DNA of 64,000 bases from Candidatus Nomurabacteria bacterium (GCA_023898465.1 CP060223.1:768001-832000); one strand, 5' to 3'. Positions 8,869 to 52,040 are shown, numbered from the stretch's first letter. Numbers and translations: made by a program. The notes: generated by a model from the sequence alone, not told the origin.

Positions 8869-8956
8869 GCTAGAGCGTGGCGGAAAGGCGAAGGACTTTC
8901 ACCAACTCACTGATCAAGACCAGCGTGTCCTCGGGGACGCCTTTCCAGAACAGATG

Positions 8957-9028
8957 AGGCGGGTCAAGGATTTGAACCTCGGAATCGCGGATTTGAAGAC
9001 CGCTGCCTTACCACTTGGCTAACCCGCC
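8957..9028 (-). tRNA. tRNA with apparent UCA anticodon (Trp-like anticodon arm; would decode UGA/UGG)
   Basis: Acceptor GGCGGGT/ACCCGCC, anticodon arm GCGGU-CUUCAAA-UCCGC (compare canonical Trp CCGGU-CUCCAAA-ACCGG), T-arm CGAGGTTCAAATCCTTG. Genes in the window use TGA as a stop, so the anticodon assignment needs tRNAscan-SE. Confidence 0.5.
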
Positions 9029-9050
9029 TTTCAACCTATAAGTTAGAGAG

Positions 9051-9124
9051 GCGCCCTGGAAGGAATTGAACCTCCGACATCTGGGTCCATAGCCCAGCGC
9101 TCTTCCGACTGAGCTACAGGGCAC
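9051..9124 (-). tRNA. tRNA-His-like (G-1:C73 present) with an AUG rather than GUG anticodon triplet
   Basis: 8-bp acceptor including G-1 paired to C73 (a His identity element), D-arm GCTCAGTCGGAAGAGC, anticodon arm CUGGG-CUAUGGA-CCCAG, T-loop GGTTCAATTCC. A34 is unusual and may be a variant or sequence error. Confidence 0.5.
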
Positions 9125-30870: not shown

Positions 30871-32337
30871 CTACACAATAAGCAGTATCGAGATCGTGTA
30901 CATCAAGAGCAGAGAGTAGACAACAGTTGGATGATGCTGCACTCGGAATCGAATAAATACCATCAATGCGAGCGCAATGGTTAAGAAAATGAGGAAGGCA
31001 ACAAAGAAGCGCTGCGAGTATAAGACGATTTGAATAAGCGTGTCAGGAGTGATCAGACGGCTTGGCTCCAAAACCATTCGACCGAAGAATTCCGTAGTGA
31101 TAAGTGGAGCCTCGGTAATATTTTGCGCTGCGTCCTGCGCAATAACTGAAATAGCGCTATCAGCTTGAGCACTACCTCGTGTATCAATTTGACCGTAATA
31201 TCCGTCAACGCTCGGTTGGAGATTCGCTTCGATTCCTCCATAGCGAACTACTACATGCTCTGGGTCATTGGTGACTGTTGCAAAGACATCATAACCAGTC
31301 CGCGGTTCCCAGGATGGTAAGACGACAGATCGATCAAGGGCAATAAGTGGAGACTGGGTATCAATGGAAATAGTTACCGGCTCGGTGCTGCCACTCTCAA
31401 GTTGTGAGTCCGGATCAACCGCATAGGCAATTAAACTATGTGAACCGTCAAGCAAGGGCTCAGTCACATCACCTTCGTATTTACCCTCGGCATCAGCCTT
31501 TACCTCAAGTACCACTGTTTCACCATCTTGCACCTTTACGACAGCATTAGGACTGGTCACTCCGGCCACTCTCGGCTGCGCCACATTTAACAAGCTTTCC
31601 GGTTTTGGAAAAGCAATAGTCGGAGTAATTGGTGGCTCGGCCTTTACTACTGGCTGAGGTGTCGGCGTGCTAGGTGTAGTAGGAGTGCTGGGTTGTTGTA
31701 TGCTTGGTGTGCTTGAGGATTGCGAAGTTGCAGGTGCGGGCTCCGGTGCTGCGGCTACTTCTACCTGCAAAGGCGCGCCAAACATCTGTGCAACCACAAT
31801 AGTCTGTACACCATTTACTTCACCAGTGGAAACCGCAATACCAATCTCAGTGTAATTTGCATTCATGATATTTTTACGGTGCGAAGGACTTGCTAACCAG
31901 GCATCAACCAGCGTTTCGGCCGTTGAAAAATCCTTAGCTAAATTCTCACCAGCAAATTTATATGAATACCCTGCTCGCTTAAACCAGTCCCACGGGGTCA
32001 CATTCGCCGGACTTGTATGAGCAAAATACTGATTCACAATCATGTCATTTGCCTTCCCTTGCGCAGCCTGTCCTAGGAGGCCATTCACTGCTAAAGGAGC
32101 TAAGCCGGCACTCTGACGGGCTTGGTTGGTGAGCGCAACGATATTCTGCACAGTCACGTTTGAGACGTACGAGGTGCCAGGATAAAAAGCCACAATACTC
32201 ATCACAAAAAGCTTCACTCCAATAAGGAGCGTTGCATACACTTTGAGGGCTTTTGACCGCAAGGCATGGGGATGATGATTATTCCCCTCATGCGGGATAA
32301 AAGCATGTTTTAAGTGGTGATGGAGTGGACGTCCCAT
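30871..32337 (-). CDS. secreted CAP/SCP/PR1-like domain protein with Pro/Thr-rich linker and C-terminal membrane anchor
   Basis: CAP core TNQARQSAGLAPLAVNGLLGQAAQGKANDMIVNQYFAHTSP...GENLAKDFSTAETLVDAWLASPSHRKNIMNANYTEIGIAV; linker PTTPSTPTPQP; C-terminal TM. Confidence 0.7.
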   Translation of the reverse strand: MGRPLHHHLKHAFIPHEGNNHHPHALRSKALKVYATLLIGVKLFVMSIVAFYPGTSYVSNVTVQNIVALTNQARQSAGLAPLAVNGLLGQAAQGKANDMIVNQYFAHTSPANVTPWDWFKRAGYSYKFAGENLAKDFSTAETLVDAWLASPSHRKNIMNANYTEIGIAVSTGEVNGVQTIVVAQMFGAPLQVEVAAAPEPAPATSQSSSTPSIQQPSTPTTPSTPTPQPVVKAEPPITPTIAFPKPESLLNVAQPRVAGVTSPNAVVKVQDGETVVLEVKADAEGKYEGDVTEPLLDGSHSLIAYAVDPDSQLESGSTEPVTISIDTQSPLIALDRSVVLPSWEPRTGYDVFATVTNDPEHVVVRYGGIEANLQPSVDGYYGQIDTRGSAQADSAISVIAQDAAQNITEAPLITTEFFGRMVLEPSRLITPDTLIQIVLYSQRFFVAFLIFLTIALALMVFIRFRVQHHPTVVYSLLLMYTISILLIV

Positions 32338-32504
32338 ATATTCACGCTAGGAAACATGAGAAAATAGCATGGAAAGTGAAAAAAATCAAGTCTAGGTACA
32401 AAAAAATCTCTTCAAACAAAGAGACTCGCAATTCCCCCGTGTATTTCTCATAGACTTTACTATTGTAGCAGAATTATCTACTTTTGTCCACTCAATCGAG
32501 AAAA

Positions 32505-32712
32505 AGAAAAGCCACCCGCCCACAACGGAGGGGGGACCACCATGTTTGTTCGTGAAACGAACCCGCAGCATAGTGGCTCCCGTTTGAGGAACGGGTGGCT
32601 GAAGAAGTGAGGCGACGAAAAAACGTAGTTGATTGTCTACAAAGCCCAGAAGGGTGTAGGGCTACGTTAGGGACGCACAGATCAGGCTCCCTGGCAGGAT
32701 GTCGCCTCAATA
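32505..32712. ncRNA. candidate structured RNA (unidentified); two nested helical domains
   Basis: Long-range helices GCCACCCG(32510)/CGGGTGGC(32593) and GAGGCGAC(32616)/GTCGCCTC(32703) each enclose further hairpins (GTTCG-UGAAA-CGAAC; ACGTAG/CTACGT; CTACA/TGTAG). Lies in a 420-nt intergenic gap; strand unknown. Confidence 0.3.
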
Positions 32713-32761
32713 TCAAAAAACTGCTTTCAACCTAACATGTAGGAAAAAAGATGCAAGCCCT

Positions 32762-33127
32762 TTATTTCACCTGAGCCAAAGCTTGCTGCAAAGTATCATA
32801 AGAAAGCAAGGCACATTTTTGGCGACTAGGAGTGAGTGGACTACCAAAGCGAGCTAACTGCTCCTCCTTAGTGCCTTGCATGACCTCCTTCACTGCTTTG
32901 CCTTTTACCGCCTCAGTCAGCATAGAGGCTCCGGCTTTAGCGATTGCACAACTCTCACCACTGAAACGGATATCTTGGATAATGCCATCTAGCACCCTAA
33001 GATCTATGTGCATCTCATCGCCACACATGGGATTACTATTTTTCTGCTGCACATTAGCATCATCCAGTGTGCCGAAATTCTTTGGGCTCCTCGTGTGTTC
33101 GAGTACTTCTTGTCGATAGAGGTCCAT
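32762..33127 (-). CDS. sufU: SufU/IscU-like Fe-S cluster assembly scaffold (zinc-dependent sulfur acceptor)
   Basis: HTRSPKNFGTLDDANVQQKNSNPMCGDEMHIDLRV...IRFSGESCAIAKAGASMLTEAVKGK. Confidence 0.8.
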   Translation of the reverse strand: MDLYRQEVLEHTRSPKNFGTLDDANVQQKNSNPMCGDEMHIDLRVLDGIIQDIRFSGESCAIAKAGASMLTEAVKGKAVKEVMQGTKEEQLARFGSPLTPSRQKCALLSYDTLQQALAQVK

Positions 33128-36729: not shown

Positions 36730-37478
36730 ACTTTTGCTTCGCGCAAAATACGATCATAACCCTCTGCCTCTAGCTGATCAGCCAGCGTCTTATCGCCTGA
36801 GCGAATAATTTTACCTTTTGCTAATACGTGCACGTGATCCGGCGTAATATATTTCAGGATGCGCTGGTAATGCGTGATAATAAGCACGCCTAATTGAGGA
36901 CCTAGGAGTTGCTGAACGCCTTCAGATACAATGCGTAAGGCATCGATGTCCAGGCCTGAGTCTGTCTCATCGAGGATGGCAAAGCGAGGTTGTAATACCG
37001 CCATTTGCAATATCTCAACCTTTTTCTTTTCTCCACCGGAAAATCCTTCGTTTACTCCACGCATGAGAAAGTTCGGATCGAGTTTTAGTTGGGCAATCTT
37101 TTCCTCAAGCATTTGTTGAAACGGCAATACACCTAGCTGATCTTTTTCTTCACGCTGGGCGTTATACGCCTGACGAAGAAATTGAGAAAGACTCACGCCG
37201 GGTAACTCGCTCGGGTATTGGAATGCTAAAAAGACGCCAAGTCGTGCTCGTTTATCAGGACTCAGACTAAGAATATCTTCCCCATCAATAGTAACAGTAC
37301 CGCCGGTCACCTCATACTGAGGATGACCCATCAACACTGAAGCGAGTGTACTCTTACCTGAACCGTTGGGGCCCATGATGGCATGAACCTCGCCTTGGCG
37401 AACAACTAAATCAAGCCCTTTGAGTATTTGATTAGCGCCGGCGCTAGCCTGGAGTTGCGAAATACGTAACTCACTCAT
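36726..37478 (-). CDS. sufC: Fe-S cluster assembly ATPase SufC
   Basis: Walker [11 protein letters not shown], signature FSGGEKKK, Walker [12 protein letters not shown]. Confidence 0.9.
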
Positions 37479-37723
37479 ACTTCAGGCCACATTTGTTTGC
37501 CGTCCTGGTCAAAAAGCTTGATAGCATCCACCGGACAAGACTTCGCCGCTTCTAAAATCATCTCTTCTTCATCACCAATGGGATGCTCTTTATCGACAAA
37601 CTCAACTTTACCTTGACCATCGAGTTGGAAGGTCTTAGCCGCTAAAGCCACGCAAGAGGCCGCGCTAATGCAGGTTTCTTGATCTAGCTCAATCTTGCCG
37701 ATTTTTTTGTCCTTGTCTGCCAT
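37475..37723 (-). CDS. small ferredoxin-like protein (Cx5C...CP), first structural gene of the suf operon
   Basis: CISAASC...SCPVDAI cysteine pattern; 82 aa. Confidence 0.5.
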   Translation of the reverse strand: MADKDKKIGKIELDQETCISAASCVALAAKTFQLDGQGKVEFVDKEHPIGDEEEMILEAAKSCPVDAIKLFDQDGKQMWPEV

Positions 37724-44875: not shown

Positions 44876-44949
44876 TTGTAATGTGAAATTTGTGTTGTTT
44901 TTTGACTTTTCATATATGAGTATAGCAAAAAAATCGTCGAAAGTCAATA

Positions 44950-45090
44950 TTATCTACCCGCCCTCTCACCCGTCATTGCGAATCCCGATGCATATCGGGA
45001 TGAAGCAATCTCGTTACTCAAACTCACGGGATTGCTTCGTCGTTCGCTGGACTCTCTCCTCGCAATGACGGGAGGAAGCGAGAGGGCGGT
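44950..45090. repeat. about 135-nt imperfect palindrome between truB and the L,D-transpeptidase gene
   Basis: CCGCCCTCTCACCCGTCATTGCGA...TCGCAATGACGGGAGGAAGCGAGAGGGCGG with an internal GAAGCAATC/GATTGCTTC stem. Confidence 0.5.
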
Positions 45091-45136
45091 TAATAAAAAT
45101 CACGACAAGGCAGAGACGCCTTATCTGTGTGTCTAC

Positions 45137-48864: not shown

Positions 48865-49563
48865 ATGTCCAAGCCACTAATCATTGCCCACCGTGGCGCC
48901 TCAGGCTACGAACCAGAAAATACCCTTCGAGCTTTTCAAAGGGCATTTGCGCTACACGCAGACGGAATCGAGCTTGACGTCCATTGTTGCGGATCTGGGG
49001 AGCTTGTAGTAATCCATGACGCCACACTACAAAGGACTACTGATGGGCACGGCCGGATTGCCAATTGCACGCTCTCAGAGCTGCAAAAACTGGACGCCGG
49101 GGCTAAAGAAAAAATCCCAACTCTCGACAGCGTCTTAAAACACACACCGAGAGGTAGCTTTGTGAATATAGAATTAAAAGGGAAAGGAAGCGGTCGAGCG
49201 CTCGCTCAATTTCTTTTTAAAAAAACAATGCGATCTAAGCTCCTTATTTCTTCTTTTCATTTTTCTGAGCTGAACGACCTACGAGAGCAGGACCCAAAAA
49301 CACCTCTGGGCTTACTATCACTTTCTCCTCTTGGCATTTGGGAAAAAGCAAAGCAGCTCTCGGTAAGCTCAATTAATATCTACCATAGAAATTTAACGCA
49401 TAAAACAGTAGGTCGTGCTCATTCATATGGCTACAAGGTATTTGCCTGGACTGTAAATACACCTCGCGATATTAGAAGGATGCTGCAGCTAAAAGTAGAC
49501 GGGATAATCACAAACTATCCTGATCGCATACAAGAAATAGAAAAACCGCCCGCCTCATCCTGA
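48865..49563 (+). CDS. glycerophosphodiester phosphodiesterase family protein
   Basis: IIAHRGASGYEPENTLRAF...GIELDVH...LVVIHDATLQRTTDGHG. Confidence 0.8.
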   Translation: MSKPLIIAHRGASGYEPENTLRAFQRAFALHADGIELDVHCCGSGELVVIHDATLQRTTDGHGRIANCTLSELQKLDAGAKEKIPTLDSVLKHTPRGSFVNIELKGKGSGRALAQFLFKKTMRSKLLISSFHFSELNDLREQDPKTPLGLLSLSPLGIWEKAKQLSVSSINIYHRNLTHKTVGRAHSYGYKVFAWTVNTPRDIRRMLQLKVDGIITNYPDRIQEIEKPPASS

Positions 49564-49593
49564 TACAAGTTCAGGACAAGACGAGCGGTGATA

Positions 49594-49803
49594 TCAGCGA
49601 CGCGAGATGCGCACGTCGACCTGCTCGATGAGCACACCAATGCAGAAGAGAGCAAACAAGCCGACACAAAGCACGAGAAGGGCGTCGCATCCAGGCTCAG
49701 GTCCACCCATCTCCACCGAGGAGACGTAGACCTGATGGGCCGAGTACACGACGTACCCAAGACCCAGGAGAAGAAAGGTGCGGTACAGAATCTTCTTGAT
49801 CAT
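49594..49803 (-). CDS. small two-helix membrane protein, GC-rich islet next to 16S
   Basis: 69 aa, about 58% GC, hydrophobic helices. Confidence 0.35.
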   Translation of the reverse strand: MIKKILYRTFLLLGLGYVVYSAHQVYVSSVEMGGPEPGCDALLVLCVGLFALFCIGVLIEQVDVRISRR

Positions 49804-50211: not shown

Positions 50212-50556
50212 GGTACAAAACTAACGTAAGAAGGTATCACTTTACGCGACTTTTGTCAATGCAAACACAGCCCGGGAGACATACTCCAAGGCTGTGTTAC
50301 CTGCTAACAGCTCAAACGTGATCAGTACAACGAATCGACTAACTACTTCGTCATAAATGTCCTCTTCTTTGAAGAAGGACGACGAAGGGTAGTTTACTAC
50401 CATCTGATGCTGAGCAACTGCCTATCACTCGGACAATCAATTGATTTGCCCGAATGGGCAGTCGGACAGACATCACGACCTACTAGGTCTCACATACTGC
50501 ACGATAGTGCAAATATATGTAGAGCCATCGTACCTTACGGCACGAAGATTCTCCCT

Positions 50557-52040
<1,484 letters not shown>

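Follow-up and report, generated by a model that had tools for sequence, protein, structure and literature searches.

In the 424-nt spacer between a sufU gene and a CAP-domain gene we found a conserved two-domain structure, which we read tentatively, at somewhat less than an even chance, as a lineage-restricted structured non-coding RNA gene of ~225 nt on the minus strand (~32722 to 32499), with its own promoter and with a 3′ domain that doubles as the terminator of the suf operon. Positions are those of the window, i.e. the whole 64,000-nt stretch of DNA from Candidatus Nomurabacteria bacterium that was analysed (GCA_023898465.1, CP060223.1:768001-832000). The fold, its conservation, the non-coding status of the element and its promoter and terminator motifs with the strand of these motifs are read from the sequence itself.

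The spacer (32338-32761) separates two minus-strand genes. The sufU/iscU-type scaffold gene (NifU_N; 32762-33127, minus strand), recognized by its ORF, by PF01592 matches of its homologs and by synteny, is the final gene of a sufC-B-D-Rieske-sufS-sufU cluster located upstream of the two-domain RNA. On the other side lies the gene of a CAP-domain membrane protein of 488 aa (30871-32337, minus strand; ORF and PF00188), with the start codon at 32337 and with DsbA/thioredoxin-like genes downstream. The CAP protein matches one of a Candidatus Nomurabacteria MAG with 100% identity, so that the source belongs to the CPR (Candidate Phyla Radiation, Patescibacteria). A first, sequence-only reading had flagged an unassigned intergenic region of 420 nt with a compact multi-helix RNA-like structure. 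A structured RNA-like element is present, as proposed, and it is conserved; the region is not one single object. The two-domain structure is confined to ~32499-32722, and the part at 32338-32498 holds another set of signals; with two promoters, P1 and P2, and a terminated unit between them, the flagged region consists of several objects.

Syntenic contigs of relatives were reached via SufU and CAP homologs and oriented such that the plus strand of each locus corresponds to the minus strand of the window. The two-domain element was found in L081 (SufU 92% identical at the amino acid level) and L169 (CAP 74% identical), as well as, in a diverged but recognizable form, in L082 (SufU 57% identical). 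An identical strain was present in three further samples (SRR12358675, SRR14234116 and SRR23493594) with zero differences in the spacer. The comparisons below thus use four distinct sequences (window, L081, L169 and L082) from three lineages; three of the sequences are close relatives.

The two closing helices of 8 bp were found again at the positions described at the outset, and so were the nested hairpins and the capped stem. On the plus strand, the closing helix of domain B is formed by gccacccg (32512-32519) and cgggtggc (32593-32600), that of domain A by gaggcgac (32610-32617) and gtcgcctc (32702-32709), and the capped stem gttcg-tgaaa-cgaac occupies 32548-32562. The impression of more structure than expected was borne out by the folding energies: for the 241-nt core (32490-32730) the MFE is −90.2 kcal/mol (z −4.26) as the plus strand and −85.3 kcal/mol (z −3.29) as the minus strand, values equalled by none of 200 dinucleotide shuffles on either strand. 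Folded singly on the minus strand, domain A has z −3.5 and domain B z −5.3. Over three lineages, the z values of the whole region and of the single domains range from −3.3 to −5.3. In a GC-corrected scan of the 64 kb by 110-nt segments, the segment with domain B (start 32501) was among the top 25 of ~2,560 on both strands, and the segment with domain A (start 32601) reached this group only as the plus strand. The same group includes regions of tRNAs, of rRNA flanks and of terminators.

Read on the minus strand, the RNA would begin with a predicted leader between promoter P0 and domain A (~32722-32710). Domain A (32610-32709) folds into a three-way junction closed by GAGGCGAC and GUCGCCUC; its inner parts are a hairpin GGGAGCC..GCGUCCC and a hairpin AACGUAG..CUACGUU with a nested CCC/GGG stem-loop. 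The pyrimidine-rich linker ACUUCUUCA (32601-32609) is predicted to be single-stranded (unpaired probability 0.55-0.97); its counterparts are ACUUCAUCA in L081 and L169 and GUUCUUUCC in L082. Domain B (32512-32600) folds into a long irregular hairpin closed by GCCACCCG and CGGGUGGC, which includes the hairpin GUUCG-UUUCA-CGAAC (32548-32562), an unpaired CUGCG motif and an unpaired CCUCC resembling an anti-Shine-Dalgarno sequence (complement of 32527-32531). This motif, CCUCC or UCCUC, is situated beside the closing helix in the 3′ internal loop and is unpaired (probability 0.76-0.79) in each of the four sequences, even in L081, where domain B has been replaced as described below.

Sequence conservation of the spacer is high. 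The window and L169 are ~95% identical over the 424 nt: 93% in the 46 nt upstream of the structure, 92% in domain A, 100% in domain B, 93% in the U-tract with P1 and 96% in the rest of the spacer. By comparison, identity at third codon positions is 60% for sufU and 40% for the CAP gene, and the next spacer (CAP-dsbA) is 51% identical, with an indel of ~19 nt. With synonymous sites of the flanking genes saturated, the ~95% identity places the spacer among the most constrained sequences of its neighbourhood. L081 is 92-100% identical to the window outside the interior of domain B (92% in domain A). Many of the differences from the window are common to L081 and L169, and the pattern among the three sequences fits few changes per branch under strong constraint. 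Conservation of the spacer could in principle result from recombination and not from selection; the divergence is ~5% and scattered, not absent as in a recent recombination tract.

Substitutions in domain A avoid paired positions: 3 of 64 paired columns are variable versus 10 of 44 unpaired columns (Fisher p = 0.006, for three close sequences), and two of the three paired-column changes stay paired as G-U, on the minus strand only. In L081, ~75 nt of the domain B interior have a different sequence (44% identity), yet the L081 rod folds to −47.1 kcal/mol (z −4.95), as compared with −46.8 kcal/mol (z −5.3) in the window. The closing helix and the unpaired UCCUC are retained, as are CUGCGGGUU and GGUCCCCC, two motifs that lie about as far apart as in the window. 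We looked for a donor of the new L081 interior and found none. A covariance model of domain B built from the window and L169 sequences recovered L081 (E = 0.003) and L082 (E = 0.7) at the expected place; in the model alignment with L081 two pairs of the inner helix, as read by eye, are changed on both sides and one pair is broken.

Both domains are closed at the same place in L082 (z −3.8 and −4.85). The closing sequence of L082 is similar to that of the window (GAGGCG[A/G]C paired with G[U/C]CGCCUC), and so are its pyrimidine-rich 9-nt linker and its 3′ strand. A blastn comparison at the homologous site gave 80% identity over 30 nt (E = 0.08); the domain interiors are not alignable, and the model of domain A misses L082.

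A search for covariation, the check proposed for this structure, gave a divided answer. Compensatory changes at the level of helices can be read from the sequences (G-C to A-U in the B1 closing helix between the window and L081, and A-U to G-C in the A1 closing helix between the window and L082), whereas RNAalifold applied to the close trio of window, L081 and L169 found no double-sided changes. Covariation support is thin because there are only four distinct sequences from three lineages. The case for the structure rests mainly on sequence conservation, on the location of substitutions off the paired columns and on the L081 replacement of domain B, which folds equally well.

The spacer had been said to lack the conserved boxes of tmRNA, RNase P RNA, SRP RNA and 6S RNA, and the Rfam covariance models agree. 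No match was obtained with Rfam 15 at gathering thresholds. A search of a 700-nt slice at E ≤ 10 gave only chance-level matches (anti-hemB with 14 bits versus a threshold of 49.5, and a miRNA), with no riboswitch and no RsaE/RoxS family among them. The Rfam search of the homologous spacers in L081, L082, L085 and L088 found nothing, and ARAGORN detected no tmRNA in the spacer. The minus-strand 74-aa ORF (32492-32716), which was earlier judged to have no features of a real protein, is interrupted by a stop codon in L169 and truncated in L081, and is thus not coding. A pseudogene origin was considered and rejected, as tblastx and blastn comparisons with the genes that fill the sufU-CAP gap in relatives gave nothing significant.

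Searches with nhmmer and with the covariance models revealed no further copy of the element in the 64 kb or in the other loci searched, and no similar sequence was found in the viral contigs, phages and plasmids searched. The covariance model of domain A (R1) matched only the window, L081 and L169, with no new members and no paralog. A SufS-based scan yielded 80 loci, mostly from other phyla at ≤54% identity, among which nhmmer found no RNA homolog; a metagenome scan with the CAP alignment returned mostly distant CAP genes, the useful loci being L089 and L146, both without the two-domain RNA. A literature search gave nothing specific to small RNAs (sRNAs) of CPR bacteria or to the sufU-CAP locus. 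The model of domain B, for its part, matched (E = 0.037) a plain terminator-like hairpin at 49532-49594 (minus strand; tail UUUUUCUAUUUCUU), which can serve as a reference for what terminators look like in this genome.

The element is absent from the syntenic spacers of L083-86, L087/88, L089/L175, L177-180, L181 and L182, and the more distant orthologous neighbourhoods have no large spacer. Since relatives with the same synteny lack it, the element is accessory, lineage-restricted and dispensable; the idea of a housekeeping RNA was discarded for the same reason. By the membership tests applied, it belongs neither to the housekeeping RNAs nor to the riboswitches, simple terminators, repeats or coding genes. 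The suf-CAP-DsbA synteny is conserved, and the contents of the sufU-CAP gap vary (L082, L083, L087, L089, L177, L181 and L182). Depending on the lineage the gap holds a response regulator gene, a 63-aa LiaF-TM-like membrane ORF, genes for a sortase and a Fe/Mn-SOD, an aquaporin/MIP channel gene, the two-domain RNA, the small P1 unit only, or almost nothing.

Several observations bear on the strand. Folding energies are ambiguous: the window and L169 sequences fold slightly better as the plus strand, and those of L081 and L082 fold better as the equivalent of the minus strand. The A-to-G changes seen in L081 and L169 leave G-U pairs if the RNA is read from the minus strand but A-C mismatches if it is read from the plus strand. 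In the window, L169 and L082 the extended −10 motif TGnTAnnnT, the promoter style of this clade, occurs three times on the minus strand, at equivalent positions, and not once on the other strand (0.77 occurrences per strand are expected by chance), and U-rich tracts follow domain B on the minus strand only. Folding energies apart, these data favour a two-domain RNA on the minus strand. Given this strand, the loop of the capped stem, introduced earlier as UGAAA, would read UUUCA in the RNA.

A candidate promoter, P0 (32729-32756, minus strand), was found by a regex scan; it consists of TTGCAT (32756-32751), a 13-nt spacing and the extended −10 motif TGTTAGGTT (32737-32729), in which the −10 hexamer, TAGGTT, is weak. 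P0 begins 5 nt past the sufU stop codon. It is identical in L081 and L169 and has the counterpart TGGTATGCT in L082; the distance from the end of the −10 motif to the first helix is 18 nt in L082 versus 20 nt in the window clade. At the other end of the element, a U-tract (32499-32511, minus strand) lies directly 3′ of the domain B basal helix and makes up with it an intrinsic-terminator signal, for the RNA as well as for read-through from sufU. After CGGGUGGC this tract reads UUUUCUUUUUCUC in the window and L169, and UUUUUUUCUC in L081. In L082 the tail after domain B is CUUCUCUUUCC. A GC-rich stem followed by a U-tract, as in intrinsic terminators, is therefore present in the window, L169 and L081; the short loop (3-8 nt) of such terminators is not, as the basal helix encloses a structure of 73-87 nt. 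A scan with the terminator consensus picked only a weak inner 6-bp stem of domain B. At the level of sequence motifs only, the element has a promoter and a terminator of its own on the same strand, as an sRNA gene should.

The remaining part of the spacer, next to the CAP gene, holds two further promoters and a short unit. Promoter P1 (32462-32490, minus strand), detected by a motif scan, has TGGACA, a 17-nt spacing and TACAAT with a TG extension; it is conserved in L081 and L169, and TGCTATACT is found at the equivalent place in six other lineages. It precedes a small terminated unit of ~55 nt (32400-32455, minus strand) with the G-rich motif ACGGGGGAA and the hairpin GAGUCUCUUUGUUUGAAGAGA followed by U7, a structure obtained by single-sequence folds only. 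Promoter P2 of the CAP gene (32361-32389, minus strand; regex scan) has TTGATT, a 14-nt spacing and the extended −10 motif TGCTATTTT; equivalents of the form TTGnnn(13-15)TGnTAnnnT precede the CAP gene in L081, L169, L082, L087, L089 and L146. The possibility raised against an RNA gene, that the whole region is the 5′ UTR of the CAP gene, does not hold in its simple form, as two promoter motifs and a terminator precede the CAP start codon.

The P1 unit (window 32400-32490, minus strand) recurs in L082 (5400-5520), L083 (4725-4840), L087 (5385-5480), L089 (660-760), L146 (1184-1290), L170 (155-245) and L176 (63-185). It consists of an extended −10 promoter resembling TGCTATACT, an RNA of 55-105 nt and a canonical terminator with A-tract, hairpin and U-tract, and is positioned upstream of the CAP gene or of a response-regulator gene that precedes the CAP gene (at least seven other lineages). 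The G-rich motif GGGAGAAAGG or ACGGGGGAA is present in the unit of most lineages. Longer units (L082, L083, L089, L170 and L176) have a GCCGUU...AACGGC hairpin; L087 has another stem at this place. The small unit is more widespread than the two-domain RNA. It has no Rfam match and could be a separate sRNA or an attenuator.

The reading we prefer, an RNA gene whose 3′ domain is the suf terminator, would work as follows. Transcription from the extended −10 promoter P0 would produce the ~225-nt RNA. With no terminator between sufU and the element, transcripts of the suf operon would also run into it. The RNA would comprise the conserved 5′ domain A, a short exposed pyrimidine-rich linker and the rod-like 3′ domain B. 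In this last domain, the GC-rich basal helix with its U-tract would serve as a large, branched terminator of the intrinsic type: transcripts of the RNA gene and of the suf operon would both end there, so that the small unit and the CAP-Dsb genes downstream, which have their own promoters, would be insulated from them. Domain B is read as a terminator because of the missing terminator between sufU and the element and because of its likeness to the hairpin at 49532-49594. A stand-alone or 3′-embedded RNA is favoured because a role in termination would not account for how well domain A and the P0 region are conserved.

We infer further that the locus yields a discrete RNA, stable enough to accumulate, with a function in trans. 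It would most probably work by pairing of exposed C/U-rich segments (CUUCUUC in the linker and CCUCC in domain B) with purine-rich ribosome-binding regions; alternatively, the RNA might serve as a protein-binding scaffold. The linker region CCUCACUUCUUCAGCC (32597-32612) is complementary in two blocks to GGCCUGAAGUAUGAGUGAG (37460-37490), which spans the sufC start codon. The predicted duplex (−17.9 kcal/mol) is the joint best among 52 start regions; in the target prediction within the window (52 genes by 4 segments) sufC was not significant after correction for multiple testing. A bolder version, which we regard as doubtful, would make the element a CPR-specific modular RNA in which a constant 5′ three-way junction is joined to an exchangeable 3′ domain, every version of which offers an anti-Shine-Dalgarno-like CCUCC/UCCUC motif, and which links Fe-S assembly to the expression of other genes. 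Such an RNA, made from its own promoter as well as by read-through from suf, would regulate perhaps suf itself via the sufC start region, or else the extracytoplasmic CAP/Dsb cluster.

A serious though less probable explanation is purely cis: a structured 3′ UTR with an oversized, branched suf terminator, which gives no transcript of its own and has no function in trans, stops read-through into CAP-Dsb and shields the suf mRNA from 3′ exonucleases. It agrees with the lack of a terminator between the sufU stop codon and the element, with a basal helix and U-tract like those of other terminators here (the domain B model matches the 49532-49594 hairpin), and with a domain B interior that can be exchanged provided that it folds. 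Closed branched domains with U-runs downstream of genes in the CPR contigs L093 and L095, the closed domain in another spacer of the window (44948-45136) and the dispensability of the element in relatives with tightly packed genes point the same way. It leaves without explanation the 92% conservation of the 100-nt domain A and the 93% conservation of the upstream 46 nt next to genes with saturated synonymous sites, and also the extended −10 motif, whose distance from the structure is kept in the window clade as well as in L082. Retention of both domains in L082 without a convincing U-tract speaks against it, too. That L082 lacks a good U-tract and has the 63-aa ORF directly after the element suggests that the element could be a leader there. 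In general terms, a riboswitch or protein-dependent attenuator would use domain A as a sensor and domain B as a conditional terminator to control read-through into CAP-Dsb in the window or into the 63-aa membrane ORF in L082. Aptamers and their expression platforms do usually show this pattern, in which the 5′ domain is conserved and the 3′ terminator domain varies, and in the window the next, second terminated unit has the same orientation. Still, we consider a leader unlikely: the window clade and L082 have no conserved domain A core in common, in contrast to ligand-binding aptamers, two promoter motifs and another terminator stand between domain B and the CAP start codon in the window clade, no riboswitch of Rfam matches even at E ≤ 10, and no antiterminator alternative was identified.

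The remaining explanations seem to us less probable again. The spacer might have no function at the RNA level, being a DNA-level or selfish element or a stretch homogenized by recombination, with incidental hairpins. The patchy presence of the element, the sufU-CAP gap as a hotspot of differing inserts, the wholesale swap of the L081 domain B interior and a spacer identity that does not track coding divergence could all be so understood. We find this improbable, since the element is single copy in the 64 kb and in the fetched loci and is missing from the phage and plasmid collections, has no tblastx similarity to neighbouring genes, accumulates substitutions that spare paired positions and keep G-U pairs on one strand, and retains a strong fold and motifs in the replaced domain B; a recombination tract is expected to be near-identical and sharp-edged and not to show ~5% scattered divergence. 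Least probable, and very much so, is a functional RNA on the plus strand, antisense to suf and CAP, as a UGAAA loop would imply. Apart from the slightly better plus-strand folding in the window and L169, the data disagree with it: extended −10 motifs are missing from the plus strand of the window, L169 and L082, no U-tract comes after the structure in this direction, A-to-G changes would give A-C mismatches, and L081 and L082 fold better in the minus-equivalent direction.

Among described RNAs, 3′-end-embedded sRNAs of enterobacteria such as DapZ and MicL have their own promoter and a terminator common with the upstream mRNA. The two-domain RNA resembles them in the promoter motif at the end of the upstream gene, in the operon orientation and in one terminator for both, and its unpaired segments could serve as a seed. 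It differs in the absence of any sequence or Rfam relation, in being much larger and more structured, and in its CPR host. With RsaE/RoxS, the C-rich anti-Shine-Dalgarno sRNAs of Firmicutes, it shares exposed CCUCC and CUUCUUC in loops and linkers, an end at an intrinsic terminator and, thematically, the proximity to redox and Fe-S genes; unlike these, it has another architecture and no Rfam match at E ≤ 10, and the motifs are inferred from four sequences. A GC-rich basal helix followed by a U-tract (window, L169 and L081) is common to Rho-independent terminators; here, in contrast, a structured insert of 73-87 nt takes the place of the ‘loop’, a second conserved domain of 100 nt and a promoter motif come before it, and conservation extends far beyond what termination needs. 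The size range, high structure content and spacer location are those of 6S, SRP, tmRNA and RNase P RNAs, from which the element is set apart by the lack of a covariance-model match and by its absence from close relatives. By analogy, the two-domain RNA would act like a 3′-embedded sRNA with a shared terminator, one that belongs to no described family.

To our knowledge, almost nothing is known about regulatory RNAs of CPR bacteria, whose genomes are small and have little space for DNA that does not code. The spacer appears to hold three transcription signals and two small RNAs between an Fe-S operon and a CAP/Dsb cluster. Its two-domain RNA combines striking conservation and a CPR host with a narrow distribution and a proposed function. 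If expressed, the RNA offers a concrete and testable entry to RNA-based regulation in CPR, and the replacement of domain B in the near relative L081 makes a natural experiment on which parts matter. If the modular trans-acting reading were true, the RNA would be one of the first functional sRNAs acting in trans to be defined in Patescibacteria; if the element is a terminator only, it nonetheless shows that CPR genomes have branched terminators of unusual size.

Other structures came to light in the window and in the relatives. The spacer at 44948-45136, between two minus-strand genes, contains a closed three-way junction of ~140 nt with the closing helix CCGCCCUCUC/GAGAGGGCGG (MFE −86 to −91 kcal/mol); its plus strand is the most structured segment of the 64-kb scan. 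It has no Rfam match and no sequence similarity to the RNA at 32.5 kb. In two contigs of distant CPR bacteria, L093 (1905-2025) and L095 (2805-2925), a closed branched domain of ~105 nt with a AUGCCCCGCAG...CUGCGGGGCAU-like helix, followed by U5, is located between the end of a gene and the CAP promoter. CPR genomes may commonly contain such large, branched structures that resemble terminators. L082 has, between its sufB and sufD genes, a 92-nt AT-rich, near-perfect inverted repeat (2046-2137), which has a chance match to a plant miRNA model on both strands. A strongly structured region of ~350 nt (50212-50560, minus strand; MFE −140 kcal/mol) lies immediately downstream of the 16S rRNA gene. 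Rfam detected no 23S rRNA gene in the 64-kb window; the rRNA genes may therefore be unlinked.

Two tRNA genes of the window have unusual anticodons. The one at 8956-9028 (minus strand) forms a canonical 73-nt cloverleaf with the anticodon UCA and was labelled ‘SeC’ by ARAGORN; we take its body and U73 to be tRNA-Cys-like. As TGA terminates 14 of the 45 long ORFs in the window, a tRNA with this anticodon would be a UGA-reading or suppressor tRNA. The other (9050-9123, minus strand) was called tRNA-His with the anticodon AUG; A34 is unusual outside tRNA-Arg.
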